Origin: Candidatus Daviesbacteria bacterium
GTDB lineage: Bacteria; Patescibacteriota; Microgenomatia; Daviesbacterales; UBA10151
Direction of reading: 5' to 3'
Assembly: GCA_016176415.1 (NCBI GenBank)
Contig: JACOXH010000017.1
Location: 1-57,803 of the forward strand
DNA length: 57,803 nucleotides
In this document: piece after piece, positions 3,414-49,801 of the stretch
How the letters are laid out: every line of letters begins with the position of its first letter
Position numbering within the stretch: position 1 is the first letter of the stretch
Notes under the pieces: model-generated
What the model was told of the DNA's origin: nothing
Databases searched by the model: none
What the model saw: only the letters and a program-made list of their open reading frames with translations
Translations under genes and position numbers: made by a program

Positions 3414-3513
3414 GTCTAGTCGCTAAGACTTGCTCCTGCAAGTCGCAAGTTCTTAGAGTCGGGAGTCAAGTATTTTGATTTTTCTAGACTCTAGATTCTA
3501 GACTCTAGTCACT
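3414..3513. repeat. intergenic composite repeat (CTAGTCGCTA..AGAGTC..GAGTCAAGTA..TCTAGAC family) carrying a nested hairpin insert
   Basis: Shares its backbone with 27541-27607. It has an extra palindrome CTAAGACTTGCTCCTGCAAGTCGCAAGTTCTTAG and a tandem TCTAGACTCTAGAT/TCTAGACTCTAGTC. Confidence 0.6.
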
Positions 3514-6016: not shown

Positions 6017-6925
6017 ATGTCTAAGATGGCCAATACGCGTGAATTGAGAAGAAGAATAAAGTCGGTAAAGAATACGGCGCAGATTACCAAAGCCATGCAG
6101 ATGGTGGCTGCATCCAGAATGAAAAGAGCCCAAAATCAGGCTCTTTCAGGCAGACCTTACAGCTTTAATTTAAGTTCTGCCTTAGAAAGACTGCTTCCTT
6201 TGGTCCATCCTGAAGCCCATGTGCTTTTAAAAGGAAATGAAGCAAAAAACACAGGAGTAGTTTTACTTTCTACAGATAAAGGCCTTTGCGGAGCTTTAAA
6301 TACTAATCTTTTCAGATTTCTTTCCACCTCAGGATTATTAACAGCAGACACCATCTTTTATACAGTGGGTAAAAAAGGCAGAAATTTTGTGGCCAAATCA
6401 GGCAAAGATTTGCAGGCTGATTTTGAAAATGTGGATACAGTTAGTTTCAGGCAGGCTGTACAACTAGCTAAGCTTTTAACAGATGCATTTTTAGCAGGAG
6501 AAATTAAAGAAGTATATATTGTTTATCCGGGATTTGTTTCAACCTTAAGACAGGAGCCAGTGAAGGTAAAGATTTTGCCGATAGATTTAGCATCTGTCAT
6601 CCTGAACGTTAGTGAAGGATCTGATTCAAAAAGAGATTCTTCGCTAATCGCTCAGAATGACAAAAAATCTGAGTTCCTTTTCGAGCCTGATCCTGATAAG
6701 CTGCTTGATTATATTCTCCTCCACTCTGTCAGAATCAGAATCTATCAGGCATTACTTGAGACAAAAGCTTCTGAACAGTCTGCCAGAATGATGGCTATGC
6801 AAAATGCCACAGATAATGCGTTAGAACTTGTAGATGATCTTAAACTTACATATAATCAAACGCGTCAGGATGCCATTACCAAAGAGCTGTTGGAAATTAC
6901 AACAGCCTCACTGGCAATGACATAA
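6017..6925 (+). CDS. atpG: F0F1 ATP synthase subunit gamma (contains an in-frame repeat insertion)
   Basis: N-terminus MANTRELRRRIKSVKNTAQITKAMQMVAASRMKRAQ and C-terminus ...TKELLEITTASLA are typical of gamma. Alternative start at 6026. Confidence 0.9.
   Translation: MSKMANTRELRRRIKSVKNTAQITKAMQMVAASRMKRAQNQALSGRPYSFNLSSALERLLPLVHPEAHVLLKGNEAKNTGVVLLSTDKGLCGALNTNLFRFLSTSGLLTADTIFYTVGKKGRNFVAKSGKDLQADFENVDTVSFRQAVQLAKLLTDAFLAGEIKEVYIVYPGFVSTLRQEPVKVKILPIDLASVILNVSEGSDSKRDSSLIAQNDKKSEFLFEPDPDKLLDYILLHSVRIRIYQALLETKASEQSARMMAMQNATDNALELVDDLKLTYNQTRQDAITKELLEITTASLAMT
6596..6661. repeat. complete 66-bp palindromic element inside atpG, in frame
   Basis: GTCATCCTGAACGTTAGTGAAGGATC...GATTCTTCGCTAATCGCTCAGAATGAC; 22 codons that encode VILNVSEGSDSKRDSSLIAQND. 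Confidence 0.7.
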
Positions 6926-18388: not shown

Positions 18389-20104
18389 TCAAGCTTTGCT
18401 TATGATGCCGATTTCCAAAATTGCTACTCTTTGGGAAATTCCAAATTTATCTGTGACTCTTTTATGGACTTCGGCTAAAAAGCCATCAGAAAGTTTGATA
18501 AATCTATTGGGATGAAATAATGTACTAATGTCATTCTGAGCGATTAGCGAAGAATCTCCCACGGATGTGGGTCTCAAATGAATTGAGAGATCCTTCACTT
18601 TGTTCAGGATGACAGAGAGTTCAGCAATAGGATTATCTGTGTTATTCATAAGAGCTATCGATAAACTATATTTTTCATCAGCCTCCTCTTTTTCATTGCG
18701 GTAGTAAATCTTTCCAATTTCGAAAATAGCTATATCATCAAACCCCTGCCTGACATTTTTAGCAGCCACTTCTACTAAATTAGGCCAGTTGTTTTCCCTT
18801 AAATATTCTGTCTCTGATGAGATTGGATTTGCAATTTTGATTAGATTTGACATTTGTAATTTGACATTTGACATTATTTGAGTTGAGTAATATGAGTATG
18901 TCTGCACTTCTGTCAGACCCAATCCTGAAAGAGCCTTTTTAAGCCTCTCTATAAGGCCAAAAATGTCTGTTTGCGGGTGAGTTGGTATATTGGGTGACAG
19001 CTGCTTTGCAGGAATCTTTTCATAGCCATACATTCTGGCTATTTCCTCAATTACATCCTCCTCAATATTTATATCCAGCCTCCAGTAGGGAACTGTAGTT
19101 TTCCAGGCTCCACCCCGGGGGTGTAATCGCATTTCTTCACCCCCGGGGTGTTTACTCAGAACGAATCCAAGTTTTTCCAGAGAAGATTTTATTTGTTCTT
19201 CTGAAATGTCTACCCCAATTAAAGAATTAATTTTTTGCTGGTTAATTTTGATGGTTTTTACTTCATCTTTTAAATTGCCTGTTAAAGTGATAGCAGTCAC
19301 TTTTCCACCCAAGCTTTCATACATCTTTATTGCAGCGCTGAAAGCCTGAAGCAGTCTTTTTTTAGTTAAACCATGATAAAATCTTTTACTTGCTTCAGAA
19401 ATAAGTCCTAATTTTGTAGCTGTTTTTCTTAAAGTTTTAGGATCAAAAATAGCAGCTTCCAGTAAAATTGTTGAGGTGGAATCAGAAACTTCAGTATTTT
19501 TGCCCCCCATTACCCCTGCTAAACCAATTGCTTTTTTAGGATCAGCAATTAATAAATCCTCTTCTGTCAGATCCCTTTCTTTATTATCCAGTGTAATTAA
19601 CTTCTCTCCTGCTTTTGCAGTCCTGACTACAATAGTTTCATCCTCCACTGTATCAGCATCAAAAGCATGTAATGGTTGACCATATTCCACCATTACTAAA
19701 TTAGTTACATCAGCGATATTGTTAACTGATCTTATTCCGCTATCGTTCAACTTTTTTACCCAAGTTTCATTTGAGTTTTCAACTTTAAGGTTTTCTATTT
19801 TTGCAACGCAATAAACTGGACATAAAGTTTCATCAGTAATTTCAACATTGACCGTTTCTGTTTCAGGGAAAACAGGTTCCTCTTCTGTAAAGCTTACTTT
19901 AGAATCTGTGATGGCTGCACTTTCAAAAGCTATCCCCCTTAAGGATAAAAGATCAGCTCGGTTATAGCCTTTCATATCCAGCTCAATATAGCTGTCGCTC
20001 ACCTCTTTGAGCCCTATTGTTCTTAAAGGGAATAATCTAATTAGTTCCTCAACAGGAACTTTTAAATCAACCAATTCTTTTAACCAAGATATTGATACTT
20101 TCAT
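18389..20104 (-). CDS. pheT: phenylalanyl-tRNA synthetase beta subunit (short form, carries in-frame repeat inserts)
   Basis: MKVSISWLKELVDL... N-terminus, B3/4 and B5-like regions, and adjacency to pheS. Confidence 0.88.
   Translation of the reverse strand: MKVSISWLKELVDLKVPVEELIRLFPLRTIGLKEVSDSYIELDMKGYNRADLLSLRGIAFESAAITDSKVSFTEEEPVFPETETVNVEITDETLCPVYCVAKIENLKVENSNETWVKKLNDSGIRSVNNIADVTNLVMVEYGQPLHAFDADTVEDETIVVRTAKAGEKLITLDNKERDLTEEDLLIADPKKAIGLAGVMGGKNTEVSDSTSTILLEAAIFDPKTLRKTATKLGLISEASKRFYHGLTKKRLLQAFSAAIKMYESLGGKVTAITLTGNLKDEVKTIKINQQKINSLIGVDISEEQIKSSLEKLGFVLSKHPGGEEMRLHPRGGAWKTTVPYWRLDINIEEDVIEEIARMYGYEKIPAKQLSPNIPTHPQTDIFGLIERLKKALSGLGLTEVQTYSYYSTQIMSNVKLQMSNLIKIANPISSETEYLRENNWPNLVEVAAKNVRQGFDDIAIFEIGKIYYRNEKEEADEKYSLSIALMNNTDNPIAELSVILNKVKDLSIHLRPTSVGDSSLIAQNDISTLFHPNRFIKLSDGFLAEVHKRVTDKFGISQRVAILEIGIISKA
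18530..18613. repeat. complete 84-bp palindromic element inside pheT, in frame
   Basis: GTCATTCTGAGCGATTAGCGAAGAATC + TCCCACGGATGTGGG + GAGATCCTTCACTTTGTTCAGGATGAC; 28 codons. Confidence 0.7.
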
Positions 20105-20119
20105 AGTTTTTTTGTTTTT

Positions 20120-20206
20120 GTCATTCTGAACGATTAGTGAAGAATCTAGATCCTTCGTTTTACCCCAAGGGTACTTGCCACTTTGTGGTGGCGCACTCAG
20201 GATGAC
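20120..20206. repeat. palindromic element copy in the pheS-pheT spacer
   Basis: GTCATTCTGAACGATTAGTGAAGAATC...GCGCACTCAGGATGAC fills the 105-nt intergenic gap. Confidence 0.65.
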
Positions 20207-26549: not shown

Positions 26550-26783
26550 TGCGGATGAGAGGAATCGAACCTCCACGCCTTTCGGCAATAGGTCCTAAGA
26601 CCTTGCAATTTTATAATTGTGCCGGAGAGAGGACTTGAACCTCCATGTCTTTCGACACAGCGCCCTAAACGCTGCGTGTATGCCATTTCACCACTCCGGC
26701 ACTTTAATTGCAAGGTCGCAAGGTCTTGCGAACTTGTGAGCAAGTTCTTAAACCTATCGTGTATACCGTTTCACCACATCCGC
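26550..26783 (-). tRNA. tRNA-Leu(UAA) gene interrupted in the anticodon loop by a 153-nt intervening sequence
   Basis: 5' part GCGGATGTGGTGAAACGGTATACACGATAGGTTTAAG(A) (26746/7-26783) and 3' part (A)CCTATTGCCGAAAGGCGTGGAGGTTCGATTCCTCTCATCCGCA (26550-26592/3). Joined, they give a perfect type II cloverleaf. Confidence 0.7.
26620..26700 (-). tRNA. tRNA-Leu(UAG), nested inside the intervening sequence of tRNA-Leu(UAA)
   Basis: GCCGGAGTGGTGAAATGGCATACACGCAGCGTTTAGGGCGCTGTGTCGAAAGACATGGAGGTTCAAGTCCTCTCTCCGGCA: acceptor GCCGGAG/CTCCGGC, anticodon stem CAGCG/CGCTG, loop TTTAGGG. Confidence 0.9.
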
Positions 26784-26814
26784 AACTTAATGCATTTTAA
26801 CAAACTGGAAGAAT

Positions 26815-27540: not shown

Positions 27541-27607
27541 AGTAACTAGTCGCTAGAGTCCAGAGTCAAGTAAATTTTCCTTGATTCTAGTCACTAGACA
27601 CTTGACT
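27541..27607. repeat. intergenic repeat, same backbone as 3414-3513
   Basis: AACTAGTCGCTAGAGTCCAGAGTCAAGTAAATTTTCCTTGATTCTAGTCACTAGAC... fills the murT-gatD spacer. Confidence 0.55.
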
Positions 27608-28973: not shown

Positions 28974-29570
28974 TTATCTTAAGGCCAGTTGGCCTGAAAC
29001 AGCAGCTATGCTGGGAGTTTGACCCACTTGAGTTCTTTGAGTATTTTCGTATGTATTGCTGAATTTTTCCATATCACTCATAAAATAAGTTACTCCTTTA
29101 GCCCAGTGAGGGGAAGCAGCATATACCCTGTTTATAGAATAAGGTTCTGTTAAACCTTTATTTAAGTAGCCTTCACGCAGGCCTTTGGCAATGGTAAAAA
29201 TTCCGTCTTTCCACGAATCAAAATAAATAGCCTGGGTACCATAAACACCCCATCCCCACGCATTGTATCCGCCTGGAATATGTTTACCAAAGGTAGATTC
29301 TACTCCTGCAATAGAAGGCAGCATTTTCCAGTCCAGCCCGTATTGATCTGCAGCATCAATGAAATCCTGGGCGTGATATTGCAAAGGGGAATTATATTTA
29401 GCCAGATATTTAGCCAAAATTTTGGCGCGTTTATCAAGCTGTCTTGTTTCAATTTGATGAGAGACAGTGTTGCCGGTTTTTATAACCTCTGCTTTTTGGG
29501 CCAATACAGAAGTATTGGAAAAAAGAAAAGGAAGAATAAGTAAGAAAGAAATAAAAAGTTTGATTTTCAT
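28974..29570 (-). CDS. secreted peptidoglycan-hydrolase-like protein (transglycosylase/glucosaminidase-like)
   Basis: Signal peptide MKIKLFISFLLILPFLFS and the motif LPSIAGVESTFG. Paralogue of 29826-30416. ATG at 29570 preferred over the TTG at 29594. Confidence 0.6.
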   Translation of the reverse strand: MKIKLFISFLLILPFLFSNTSVLAQKAEVIKTGNTVSHQIETRQLDKRAKILAKYLAKYNSPLQYHAQDFIDAADQYGLDWKMLPSIAGVESTFGKHIPGGYNAWGWGVYGTQAIYFDSWKDGIFTIAKGLREGYLNKGLTEPYSINRVYAASPHWAKGVTYFMSDMEKFSNTYENTQRTQVGQTPSIAAVSGQLALR

Positions 29571-29603
29571 ATATTTTCGGTTTTCCCTTGTCAAAAACTG
29601 TCA

Positions 29604-29670
29604 TTTAAGAACTTGCTCACAAGTTCGCAAGACCTTGCGATCTTGCAATTATAATTGCAAGGTCTTAGAC
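29604..29670. repeat. 'empty' copy of the palindromic element that forms the tRNA-Leu(UAA) intervening sequence
   Basis: TTTAAGAACTTGCTCACAAGTTCGCAAGACCTTGCGATCTTGCAATTATAATTGCAAGGTCTTAGAC. It matches the flanks of the 26593-26745 insert almost base for base but lacks the inner tRNA, and is in opposite orientation. Confidence 0.75.
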
Positions 29671-29704
29671 ACTTTTTGCAAGCGATCTCCTTTGTTCAGT
29701 CCGA

Positions 29705-33773: not shown

Positions 33774-33864
33774 AGCTCGCAAGAATTACCTAATTCTTTA
33801 GAGCGAAGCTCGCAAGAATTACCTAATTCTTTAGAGCGAAGCTCGCAAGAATTACCTAATTCTT
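33774..33864. repeat. 33-bp tandem repeat x2.76; each unit carries the palindrome AAGAATTACCTAATTCTT
   Basis: Unit AGCTCGCAAGAATTACCTAATTCTTTAGAGCGA repeated exactly at 33774, 33807 and 33840. Lies 49 nt upstream of the GT4 start. Confidence 0.9.
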
Positions 33865-33912
33865 ACTTAAAATTACCATTTCCTCTTATTTCAAAATGCT
33901 ACCATTCGGGTT

Positions 33913-37628: not shown

Positions 37629-37727
37629 TCGGACTGAAGATCAAAACAATTACAATATTTAAAATTGTTTTGATCAAAGGAGATCGCTTGCAAAAATAAT
37701 CTAAATGATTATTTTTGACAAGGGCAT

Positions 37728-37931
37728 ATGCAAGATGTAAGTAAATTATTTTCATTGCTCGGGGCAATGTTTTTACTGCTGGGGTTGGTTTTTAACATCA
37801 TACCCAGTTTACCCAGAATCCCGGGGGATCTTTATATAGATAAATTTGGTTTTAAAGTCTATATCCCTTTCACTTCAGCTATTGTTGCTTCTGTAATTTT
37901 AACCCTGATGTTAAACTTTTTTAGGAAGTGA
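37728..37931 (+). CDS. small membrane protein, DUF2905-like
   Basis: 67 aa with two TM helices and the central ...LPRIPGDLYI... motif. Confidence 0.6.
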   Translation: MQDVSKLFSLLGAMFLLLGLVFNIIPSLPRIPGDLYIDKFGFKVYIPFTSAIVASVILTLMLNFFRK

Positions 37932-39278: not shown

Positions 39279-39350
39279 TGCCGGATCGTCTAACGGTAGG
39301 ACAACTGCCTTTGGAGCAGTGAATTCTAGGTTCGAATCCTAGTCCGGCAA
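39279..39350 (+). tRNA. tRNA-Gln(UUG); integration target of the downstream island
   Basis: U1:A72 acceptor TGCCGGA/TCCGGCA, anticodon stem ACTGC/GCAGT, loop CTTTGGA, T-loop TTCGAAT. Confidence 0.88.
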
Positions 39351-40856
39351 CAAGGTTGGACTCGCTGGCTGTAGGGTGGCCGGATTCGCGGCGGATGGGG
39401 GCGCCGCGAGGAGAAAATAGCCACGATTTCGGTATTCCACTTGAAGTTGTTGATTGAATAAAAAGAAGTTCGAGCCGACAGTTTTTGCTCCGATACTCAG
39501 TTCGGAGCATGTATTTTTTGCGCGCGCGATTTTTGCGCACGAAAGTGCGCTACCGATAAAGTTTTTTAGTGGTTCGAGCCATTCACTGCCTTTGTCTGAA
39601 ATTTCTTTAATTCTTTGCTGAAGTGATAGTTTTTCTTCAATTAAATAGTTCTTTTTATTTTGGTATTCTTTGGAGTCAATAACTTTGTCCAAATATCCTT
39701 CAAGCAATCTGTCCAGTTTATCTTCAGTTTCCTTAAGTTCTGTTTTTAACTTCTCGATTATTCCTTTAGATTTAAGTTTTTCTTTTTGGGCATCTTCATT
39801 TGCCCATTGCCGGAATTTTTCAGCCGCATATTCTGACATCGAGGCTTTACCAACAATTTCTTTTAATTGTATTTCAATATCATCTTTCCTTGCATACTTT
39901 TGATTACATACCCCTTTTTTCTTGGAACAGCGATAGTAAATGAAATCAACAGAGTTATTGGTTCTTGGGTAAAACCTGTGATGTTTTTCCGCAGTTATGG
40001 AGCAACCGCATTCTTTGCACTTAATTAGCCCTAAAAACTCAAATTCACTTTTTAGAGATTTATTTTTTCTGTTTCTTGCTTTAATTATTTCCTGCACAGA
40101 ATCAAATAATTTCTTGGTAATTAAAGGTTTATGTTTTCCTTCGTAAAGTTCACCATTAAATCTCATTACTCCATAGTAGAAAGGATCACCTAAAATTCTT
40201 TTCATCTTGTCTTTATGAAAAATCCTGCCTCCAAAAGTCGTATTAAATATTTTATTCTTAGTAAAGAAATTTATAATATCAACATAGGTATAACCGCCTG
40301 TTGCAAACATTTCAAAAGCTTTGGCAAGATAGGGAGCATGTCTCCTATCTACATGTATACTTTTTGTACCTGAATCATTTATGTACCCAAATGGCGCATG
40401 ATTAGGCCATTCCCCTCTTCTTAATTTTTGCCTGTTACCTCTTTTAACATTCTCGGATAAATTGTCCACATAGTATTTAGATTGACCAAAGGCTATGTTT
40501 AACATGAATTTTCCCTGCGGTGTGTTATCAAACCAAAAAGATGGAAATTTTAAATCCAAAAGTTTTCCTGTATCTAAAAGGTAAATTATTCTTCCGCCAT
40601 CAATAGAATTTCTGGCTAATCTGTCAGGATGCCACGATAAAATCCCGTTAGCTTCTCCTGCCTCCAACATCCTTATTAGTTCTGCAAATTTTTCCCTGCC
40701 CGGCTTTTTGGCAGTTTTACTTTCGGTAATGGTAGTAACTATTTCTAAATTTTCTTTTTCGGCAAACTCTTTAATCTCTGCAATTTGAGCCTCAATAGAG
40801 AGTATTTGCCTGTCCGGCTCATCTGTAGATTTTCTGCAATATGCAATGTATCTCAT
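39339..40856 (-). CDS. large serine recombinase (resolvase catalytic domain + recombinase domain + zinc ribbon + coiled coil)
   Basis: MRYIAYCRKSTDEPDRQ (catalytic Ser), ...CKECGCSITAEKHH...YYRCSKKKGVC zinc ribbon. The 3' end reads through repeat X into the tRNA-Gln 3' end, so the exact stop is uncertain. Confidence 0.9.
   Translation of the reverse strand: MRYIAYCRKSTDEPDRQILSIEAQIAEIKEFAEKENLEIVTTITESKTAKKPGREKFAELIRMLEAGEANGILSWHPDRLARNSIDGGRIIYLLDTGKLLDLKFPSFWFDNTPQGKFMLNIAFGQSKYYVDNLSENVKRGNRQKLRRGEWPNHAPFGYINDSGTKSIHVDRRHAPYLAKAFEMFATGGYTYVDIINFFTKNKIFNTTFGGRIFHKDKMKRILGDPFYYGVMRFNGELYEGKHKPLITKKLFDSVQEIIKARNRKNKSLKSEFEFLGLIKCKECGCSITAEKHHRFYPRTNNSVDFIYYRCSKKKGVCNQKYARKDDIEIQLKEIVGKASMSEYAAEKFRQWANEDAQKEKLKSKGIIEKLKTELKETEDKLDRLLEGYLDKVIDSKEYQNKKNYLIEEKLSLQQRIKEISDKGSEWLEPLKNFIGSALSCAKIARAKNTCSELSIGAKTVGSNFFLFNQQLQVEYRNRGYFLLAAPPSAANPATLQPASPTLLPD
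39348..39432. repeat. repeat X, copy 1 (85 bp), abutting tRNA-Gln
   Basis: CAACAAGGTTGGACTCGCTGGCTGTAGGGTGGCCGGATTCGCGGCGGATGGGGGCGCCGCGAGGAGAAAATAGCCACGATTTCGG; a perfect inverted match to 40954-41038. Confidence 0.9.
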
Positions 40857-40953
40857 ATTTTTATTAGAAGAAAAGTTCTTTTCAGTGATTAACTAAATTT
40901 TTGCGTACACTTTTCCAATTCGTTTTTTGTTTCTTTTTATTCCCAACAACTTC

Positions 40954-41038
40954 CCGAAATCGTGGCTATTTTCTCCTCGCGGCGCCCCCATCCGCCGCGA
41001 ATCCGGCCACCCTACAGCCAGCGAGTCCAACCTTGTTG
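40954..41038. repeat. repeat X, copy 2 (inverted), fused to repeat Y (attP-like Y-X junction)
   Basis: Exact reverse complement of 39348-39432 by my base-by-base comparison. Preceded by a short relic of a recombinase 3' end (..FFLF..RNRGYFLL..). Confidence 0.9.
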
Positions 41039-41127
41039 GCGCTTTACAAAAAAATTCGAACGCATTTTCAATCGACGCATTGACTCGTCGCCATCCCGAC
41101 CTCCCGTTGTTTTCTACCTTAAATGTT
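41036..41127. repeat. repeat Y, copy 1 (92 bp, minus orientation)
   Basis: The reverse complement equals 49710-49801: AACATTTAAGGTAGAAAACAACGGGAGGTCGGGATGGCGACGAGTCAATGCGTCGATTGAAAATGCGTTCGAATTTTTTTGTAAAGCGCCAA. Confidence 0.9.
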
Positions 41128-41227
41128 ATTCCGATTCCGTTCCGCAAAACTGTCGGCTCGAACCCCCGCCACAGCGGGGCAAAAAACGCAAAAATTTTAA
41201 AGAACTTTTCAATTTTTAACTATTGAG

Positions 41228-49576: not shown

Positions 49577-49709
49577 TATTAAATAAATATTGTAAATATT
49601 AAAATATTGTTTGTAATTGCTTGTCCCGCCGCAGCGGGACTATAATAAAAAAAATCGCGCGCATTCTGTCTTTCTGTCTTTGCAAAAAATACTTGAAGCG
49701 GGACGGAAT

Positions 49710-49801
49710 AACATTTAAGGTAGAAAACAACGGGAGGTCGGGATGGCGACGAGTCAATGCGTCGATTGAAAATGCGTTCGAATTTTTTTGTAAAGCGCCA
49801 A
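49710..49801. repeat. repeat Y, copy 2 (plus orientation), at the right end of the island
   Basis: Exact inverted match to 41036-41127. Contains the hairpin CGACG..CGTCG and a T7 run just before the junction. Confidence 0.9.

Follow-up and report, generated by a model that had tools for sequence, protein, structure and literature searches.

In a 57.8-kb window, a contig of Candidatus Daviesbacteria, a group of bacteria of very small size that have not been cultured, we found a tRNA-Leu gene interrupted in its anticodon loop by a 153-nucleotide (nt) insert in which a second and complete tRNA-Leu(UAG) gene is nested. Our preferred explanation, with a probability of roughly 0.75, is that a TA-duplicating mini-element resembling transposable elements of the miniature inverted-repeat kind (MITEs), here named E, inserted into the resident tRNA-Leu(UAG) gene at its anticodon loop and brought along a replacement tRNA-Leu(UAG). 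Two copies of E are known to interrupt a tRNA gene, and these are also the only copies that carry a tRNA; in both the cargo is Leu(UAG), has the orientation of the outer gene and lies downstream of a TGnTAAAAT motif. Because only the tRNA-interrupting copies carry a tRNA, and one with the same anticodon, the most economical view is that insertions into this essential gene survive only where a substitute is supplied. Related loci are designated by L-numbers.

The nested locus and its uninterrupted orthologues

Read along the minus strand from 26783 to 26550, the locus consists of a tRNA 5' part, the 153-nt insert and a tRNA 3' part (Table 1). The inner gene was recognized by both ARAGORN and Rfam (49.8 bits, with a gathering threshold of 29). 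ARAGORN accepted the joined outer segments as tRNA-Leu solely when exactly 153 nt were taken out, and in its intron mode it left the outer gene uncalled. The insert is made up of a 151-nt copy of E and a duplicated TA, its part outside the inner tRNA amounts to 70 nt, it encodes no protein, and CCA is encoded by neither of the nested genes. A 12-bp helix, GACCTTGCAATT/AATTGCAAGGTC, pairs 26706-26717 with 26599-26610 around the inner tRNA, and the 234-nt region as a whole folds far better than its shuffled versions (z = -6.4). An earlier reading made from the sequence only had described the nested arrangement, the length of the insert, the inner gene and this helix, and all of these are in agreement with the sequence, ARAGORN and Rfam; its remark that the insert is too short for a group I intron is likewise in accordance with the 70-nt non-tRNA part and with the lack of an Rfam intron match.

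The identity of the outer gene is less evident, as TA is found at both junctions and removal of 153 nt can therefore yield the loop TTTAAGA (UAA) or TTTAGGA (UAG), either of which ARAGORN accepts. This repetition of TA is the reason why the sequence-only reading took the outer gene for a tRNA-Leu(UAA) interrupted at or next to position 37/38, and why it let the mature anticodon depend on the junction. It had also proposed a comparison of orthologous loci, for which we used the contigs of GatD homologues. An uninterrupted tRNA-Leu(UAG) gene lies directly after GatD in nine lineages, complete in seven of them, while in the other two the contig ends inside the gene with the loop covered. The outer type of the window is present without interruption in L035 and L038 (GCGGATG...GATAGGTTTAGGACCTATTGCC, loop TTTA-GGA, with the TGnTAAAAT motif likewise upstream), and over flank plus gene L035 is identical to the window, with E and one TA removed, at 88 of 100 positions; the empty (uninterrupted) junction of the window would read GATAGGTTTAGGACCTAT. 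Since the uninterrupted orthologues read TTTAGGA, the outer gene, judged by these orthologues, is the resident tRNA-Leu(UAG) of the locus after GatD, and it is interrupted as TTTA^GGA, not at 37/38 but between nt 35 and 36, a placement ambiguous by 2 nt. Both anticodons remain acceptable to ARAGORN, as had been claimed, but the empty sites show that UAG was the original one. The accompanying argument that the outer gene is needed for decoding of UUA falls as well. In a relative (L006) an intact tRNA-Leu(UAA) gene of its own stands at another place in the genome, beside tRNA-Pro. The resident tRNA-Leu(UAG) is probably single-copy.

A second nested locus belongs to Daviesbacteria RIFCSPLOWO2_02_FULL_41_8 (L012; L025 is the assembly of the Joint Genome Institute, JGI). 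There the corresponding hairpin loop of E holds, between homologous flanks, a tRNA-Leu(UAG), and E sits in the anticodon loop of a different resident tRNA-Leu(UAG), at the same MurT-GatD locus. The 3' arm of E in the window is homologous to that of L012, CCAAAATACAAAATTGCAAGGTCT. The outer tRNA of L012/L025 is found uninterrupted in L028 (CATGATTTAGGATCATG, loop CATGA-TTTAGGA-TCATG), from which it differs at 1 of 81 nt even though identity falls to about 75% in the flanking genes. ARAGORN calls both outer genes, with TA restored, tRNA-Leu(tag). Altogether 2 of the 11 sampled lineages with a readable anticodon loop are filled. An exact-sequence look-up of the downstream neighbor for an empty allele in the same species returned nothing on record.

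Identity between the two cargo tRNAs is only about 76%, while the sequences immediately beside them are homologous. The cargo of the window shares about 83% identity with the tRNA-Leu(UAG) resident in L029 and L030, and that of L012 is 86% identical to the resident (outer) gene of the window lineage. We considered whether the two loci correspond outer to outer and inner to inner, and this was ruled out: the outer gene of the window is closest to the inner gene of L012 (86%), and each outer gene is of the resident type of its own lineage. The resident gene itself is not fixed in orientation, as it is opposite in L026, L028, L030, L034, L036 and L037 to what it is in L029, L031, L035, L038 and the window, with the order of the neighboring genes kept and each orientation having its own TGnTAAAAT motif. 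The motif upstream of the outer tRNA resembles an extended -10 box and reads TGCTAAAAT or TGTTAAAAT in L035, L038, L031 and L029. It is presumed to be the promoter of the outer gene and would drive the cargo tRNA as well.

Table 1. Positions of the parts of the nested locus and of the other copies of E in the window
Feature	Position	Strand	Remarks
Extended -10-like motif TGTTAAAAT, 5' of the outer tRNA	26794..26802	-	Conserved upstream of uninterrupted orthologues
Outer (resident) tRNA-Leu(UAG), nt 1-35, GCGGATG...GATAGGTTTA	26749..26783	-	Ends with the left TA copy (26750-26749)
E 5' arm, 48 nt, AGAACTTGCTCACAAGTTCGCAAGACCTTGCGACCTTGCAATTAAAGT	26701..26748	-	Holds P1 AACTTG/CAAGTT, P2 CGCAA/TTGCG and the 5' strand of P3
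Cargo, complete tRNA-Leu(UAG), 81 nt, no encoded CCA	26620..26700	-	In the P3 hairpin loop; same orientation as the outer gene
E 3' arm, 22 nt, CAATTATAAAATTGCAAGGTCT	26598..26619	-	3' strand of P3 and right terminal repeat
Duplicated target dinucleotide TA, right-hand copy	26596..26597	-	TA...TA at 16/16 copies; single TA at empty sites
Outer (resident) tRNA-Leu(UAG), nt 36-81, GGACCTATTGCC...CATCCGCA	26550..26595	-	Read from the sequence
Second E copy, 58 nt plus flanking TAs	29606..29667	+	Same long P3 helix, loop just ATA, no tRNA
Third E copy, internally deleted, 28 nt plus TAs, TA-AGAACTTGCGACTTGCAGGAGCAAGTCT-TA	3424..3455	-	Read from the sequence
Empty paralogue of the site of the second E copy, ...AAAAATAATCATTTAGATTATTTTT...	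37671..37746	-	Single TA where the filled copy reads TA-E-TA

The repeated element and its distribution

Copies of E without cargo are 28-58 nt long and have no coding capacity. The general layout is AGAACTTGCTCACAAGTTCGCAAGACC..., a variable hairpin and ...GTCT, with TA on each side, so that three hairpins can be distinguished, P1 and P2 (Table 1) and the variable P3, whose stem shows compensating changes among copies (e.g. GACAG/CTGTC, GACG/CGTC and GACTTGC/GCAAGTC). Subterminal hairpins are present at both ends. The terminal inverted repeats, TAAGA[A/C]CTTGC, are short: in the subfamily with a long P3 the termini TAAGAACTTGC and TAAGACCTTGC match at 10 of 11 positions, and in the short subfamily they are reduced to TAAGA plus CTTGCT, with indels, which is short for a MITE. 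At an expectation value of up to 10, Rfam identified only the inner tRNA in the nested region, and across the whole window and the related loci E matched no family.

The window holds three copies of E, and the other metagenome-assembled genomes (MAGs) hold two to three each. A terminator-like hairpin separates two minus-strand open reading frames (ORFs), and in its loop lies the second copy, antisense to the neighboring genes; this copy is identical (29608-29649) to the first 42 nt of the 5' arm at the nested locus at 41 positions; a repeat finder gave 47/48 (98%) for the left arms, counting 5 flanking bases. This copy is nested in a repeated module of about 75 nt (29563-29698), a terminator-like hairpin followed by TTGACA, which has an empty copy further along the window (Table 1) and is missing from the orthologous intergenic region of relatives. 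The third copy and a copy in MAG CAZAZW01 (L010, 1423-1477) have their P3 variant and their right flank, TAGCGACTAG, in common, in otherwise diverged surroundings; this could mean a shared insertion of old date or a target that E prefers.

A search with an exact 24-nt pattern of E gave 11 stretches each in JGI metagenomes and in species-representative genomes, the latter being for the most part MAGs of Candidatus Daviesbacteria. Distinct full-length insertion sites number 15, the two copies in the window and 13 in at least seven other Daviesbacteria-type MAGs. TA bounds each of these and the third copy of the window, the restored targets read YY-TA-RR, and empty orthologous or paralogous sites, available for three of the insertions, have a single TA. 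A 4-bp duplication of YTAR, as made by IS5-like elements, was ruled out because the left and right tetranucleotides are unlike at several sites. The first 34 nt of E are the same at every full-length site but one (14 of 15, with L013 as the exception), although the invariance of the 5' part and of P1 and P2 is partly owed to the exact search pattern. The first 35 nt of the 5' arm are the same in the window and in L012, whose flanking genes are only about 70-75% identical. Since identical 5' arms occur in genomes with such diverged neighboring genes, and since only two of the sampled lineages are filled at the tRNA locus, the pattern points to a recent spread of E that would have been horizontal rather than by inheritance.

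Neither an exact-pattern scan of viral contigs nor a BLAST search of plasmids found E. Queries at the protein level, with a spurious 78-aa ORF over the nested genes and with concatenated E-encoded peptides, gave no hit, and an nhmmer profile of E run over about 300 kb (the window and the related loci) detected no further diverged copies.

Some of the sites outside tRNA genes are of interest in themselves. In three loci (L008, L015 and L020) E is situated at codons 70-87 of an HMG-CoA reductase gene, between the AGP and IPLATTEG motifs, and is flanked by a 13-nt direct repeat, AGAGTCAAGAGTC. The 48-nt form found there (E plus TA, 16 codons) is in frame in the ORF, and five of its six frames are free of stops. 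The restored site has an apparent extra insert of about 21 nt, related to the GAGTCTAGAGTC-type palindromes present in the window at 3477-3506 and 27573-27602. In L005, L017 and L022 the element (342-389 in L005) occupies the 5-nt loop of a 7-bp hairpin, GGGAGTC GTTTA GACTCCC, adjoined by tRNA-Asn; the L005 region looks structured, and Rfam and ARAGORN identify nothing in it whether E is removed or not. Three of the 15 targets are in hairpin loops, compared to 5% of control YTAR sites (p about 0.04), which hints at a preference of E for such loops.

Proposed mechanism and rival explanations

According to the preferred explanation, E would have inserted at the TA of the loop TTTA^GGA in the resident tRNA-Leu(UAG) downstream of GatD. 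A single transcript from the resident promoter would then comprise the 5' half, an E arm, the cargo tRNA, the other E arm and the 3' half, and the cargo tRNA could be freed by RNase P, 3' processing and CCA addition. The cargo would take over CUN decoding, with the outer halves as discarded by-products, and such a same-anticodon replacement would let E persist in an essential gene. Judging from the sequence, the cargo most likely replaces the broken gene, with its expression and the loss of function of the outer gene both presumed. Mobility would depend on an enzyme acting in trans. Duplication of TA in a YTAR context is the classic signature of IS630/Tc1 elements, and because E shows a TA duplication and YY-TA-RR (YTAR) targets, an IS630/Tc1-type transposase would be the best fit. 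Each cargo resembles the resident tRNA of another lineage. As a suggestion only, the cargo may have undergone gene conversion by the flanking halves in a previous host.

Several observations weigh against this explanation. We infer both the release of the cargo and the loss of function of the outer gene from the sequence, and both outer genes are still perfect cloverleaves, which fits a recent insertion but would fit continued function as well. Over the window and about 300 kb of related loci we came upon neither a transposase nor an autonomous partner whose ends match, and a Pfam scan of the ORFs at 22-32 kb, where the tRNA locus lies, and at 39-50 kb, in a recombinase island, detected no DDE or Y1 transposase. 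Short terminal inverted repeats and two to three copies per genome are unusual for MITEs. Finally, the cargo tRNAs are diverged despite nearly the same E arms, each being like the resident of another lineage, and the explanation leaves the route of capture or replacement unexplained.

The perfect cloverleaves could also mean that E is removed at the level of RNA by a bacterial cleavage-and-ligation activity, or that the halves cooperate, in which case both the outer and the inner tRNA would mature and E would be a mobile intron-like element. This is in accordance with the near identity of the L012 outer gene to its functional orthologue amid flanking genes that are about 75% identical, with the strong structure of E and the sameness of its first 34 nt at nearly all full-length sites, and with the position of the inner tRNA at the tip of a 12-bp helix able to hold the halves together. 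We nevertheless consider it improbable. A bulge-helix-bulge consists of two 3-nt bulges separated by a 4-bp helix and is found at exon-intron boundaries. The sequence-only reading had described the junction as partly of this kind, but the UAAG/CUUA pairing on which it relied is flanked by 2x3 and 2x2 internal loops that do not form the motif, and the minimum-free-energy fold uses other helices. E has neither features of group I or group II introns nor an Rfam match, TA on both sides of all 16 copies is a signature of insertion into DNA, one copy is antisense to the surrounding genes, another is in frame in an ORF, and the constancy of the 5' part is to some extent a product of the search. With a same-anticodon cargo in both cases splicing would be needless, and no copy without cargo was found in tRNAs. 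A protein-dependent bacterial tRNA splicing by which E and TA are excised, or the helix-held halves are ligated, so that one locus gives two mature tRNA-Leu species, seems still a little less probable, and among the ORFs examined (22-32 kb and 39-50 kb) there is no gene for an EndA splicing endonuclease or an RNA ligase. The new bacterial tRNA-in-tRNA splicing put forward in the sequence-only reading thus gives way to a copy of a TA-bounded repeated element which has other copies in intergenic hairpins and in a protein gene. The other possibility it raised, a gene recently killed by a tRNA-carrying mini-element, fared better: the element and its insertion are documented by the repeat copies and the empty sites, the loss of function of the outer gene we infer, and the same-anticodon cargo is an addition. 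There is very little to be said for the idea that UUA decoding requires a tRNA-Leu(UAA) which is interrupted at or beside 37/38 and restored through a novel kind of splicing. One register of removal does give a valid tRNA-Leu(UAA), and the acceptor GCGGATG is like the GCTGATG of the intact gene in L006; still, L035 and L038, with the same acceptor stem, upstream flank and locus, read UAG, as does the exact empty site of the second nested case, Leu(UAG) is at this locus in nine lineages, and the other 14 sites define the ends of E as AGAAC...GTCT plus TA.

It is possible, at odds that we put well below even, that the biology is as proposed and the chemistry is different: either a single-strand transposition of the IS200/IS605 type 3' of YTA, or a circular form recombining at a TA core by a serine or tyrosine recombinase. 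'TA...TA' is indistinguishable from 'target YTA + element ending TTA', as all left flanks end in YTA and all copies of the element plus TA end in TTA, and the joined ends of E, GTCT-TA-AGAAC, resemble the YY-TA-RR targets. The subterminal hairpins with only short terminal repeats, the share of targets in hairpin loops and a large serine recombinase encoded in the window point in the same direction. On the other hand, there is no Y1 transposase or other gene of the IS200/IS605 type in the parts examined, nothing ties the serine recombinase island to E, the hairpin-loop preference is weak, and the TA duplication in its YTAR context remains the classic mark of IS630/Tc1. As for an artefact of assembly, a chimeric join through the repeated arms of E is conceivable since E is repeated in the genome, and three Logan contigs of the same organism (L001-L003) have their ends at the left junction of E or 5 nt short of it. 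L003 ends in ...GGTTTA exactly, which may reflect a filled/empty polymorphism in the population or simply a break caused by the repeat. The same architecture was, however, assembled independently in another genome from two data sets (MFDZ01000063 and Ga0155161_103), which makes misassembly, named in the sequence-only reading as a possible refutation, very unlikely; moreover, the exact stretches that the two copies in the window have in common measure only about 41 nt (left) and 16 nt (right), and the outer halves complement each other perfectly.

Known systems and other repeats in the window

E is best compared with bacterial MITEs such as RUP of Streptococcus pneumoniae, mobilized by IS630-Spn1, and Correia/NEMIS of Neisseria, which have TA at both ends from target duplication (PMC2229807). 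Like them it is small and non-coding, with stem-loops, near-identical copies and both intergenic and intragenic sites (PMC2229807), and it has terminal inverted repeats, though short ones. It differs in its size (28-58 nt against about 100-150 nt) and low copy number of two to three per genome, in its spread over genomes that are only 70-75% identical with no matching insertion sequence known, and in having one subfamily with a functional-looking tRNA gene in a hairpin loop. The palindromic elements of Rickettsia are found within genes for structured RNAs (tmRNA, RNase P RNA) and also, in frame, within conserved protein genes (PMC2229807), which is similar to the presence of E in the HMG-CoA reductase gene and inside a tRNA gene; those inserts are thought to be tolerated in the host RNA or protein, whereas E in an anticodon loop cannot be and brings a whole replacement gene. 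Insertion into a tRNA gene with function kept by an element-borne sequence is shared with tRNA-targeting integrative elements (temperate phages, integrative and conjugative elements, archaeal pNOB8/SSV-type elements), and in archaea such insertions have been tied to disrupted and split tRNA genes (PMC3293823). These elements, however, measure kilobases, encode their own integrase and duplicate the 3' part of the tRNA at the attachment site, while E, with about 150 nt and no protein gene, cuts the anticodon loop, does not rebuild the gene and provides a complete tRNA apart from it.

A group I intron has a length of about 200 nt or more and a conserved catalytic core (P1-P9), and in tRNA-Leu(UAA) it is sited between nt 34 and 35. 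The intron of cyanobacterial and plastid tRNA-Leu(UAA) is likewise an insertion in the anticodon loop of a bacterial tRNA-Leu, but E is far shorter, matches no intron in Rfam, interrupts the UAG isoacceptor and occurs outside tRNAs too. Archaeal bulge-helix-bulge tRNA introns, with the mobile introns of Thermoproteales and split tRNAs among them, resemble E in being inserts of short length that spread from one tRNA gene to another and may be regarded as transposable (meeting report, PMC10714607). E is unlike them in lacking the bulge-helix-bulge, in not being at 37/38, in its TA duplication at the DNA level, in its non-tRNA sites and in its bacterial host, with no splicing endonuclease gene among the ORFs examined. 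The literature searched gave no report of nested tRNA genes or of E in the Candidate Phyla Radiation. E combines known kinds, TA-duplicating MITEs and tRNA-targeting elements that preserve the function of their target, and for a same-anticodon tRNA cargo we found no published description.

If the preferred explanation is true, E is a very compact selfish element that neutralizes its own insertion, about 50 nt of element with a copy of the essential tRNA it breaks. It could colonize an otherwise lethal site and be hard to lose there. tRNA genes would then travel as cargo of a mini-element between species of the Candidate Phyla Radiation, each cargo being like the resident tRNA of another lineage, and this would be one route to tRNA gene replacement. 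Before nested or "split" tRNA calls in metagenome-assembled genomes are read as introns, empty sites should be consulted.

Other repeats were noted in the window. A gene for a serine recombinase (39339-40856, minus strand, with Resolvase, Recombinase and Zn_ribbon_recom domains) adjoins tRNA-Gln and is bracketed by an 88-nt inverted repeat (39345-39432 / 40954-41041, 99%), and beyond it a perfect 98-nt inverted repeat (41036-41133 / 49704-49801) encloses about 8.6 kb coding for helix-turn-helix, IrrE-like peptidase, STAND-NTPase-like and other proteins. The repeats of this region (39279-41133 and 49704-49801) are GC-rich in relation to the host, and the tRNA-Gln region looks like an integrated or invertible island. 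A family of short repeats, TGTCATTCTGAGCGATTAGCGAAGAATCT, is present in both orientations with 93-100% identity at 6633-6666, 18529-18558 and 20115-20147, and at 33774-33872 a 33-nt unit, AGCTCGCAAGAATTACCTAATTCTTTAGAGCGA, is repeated three times in tandem.

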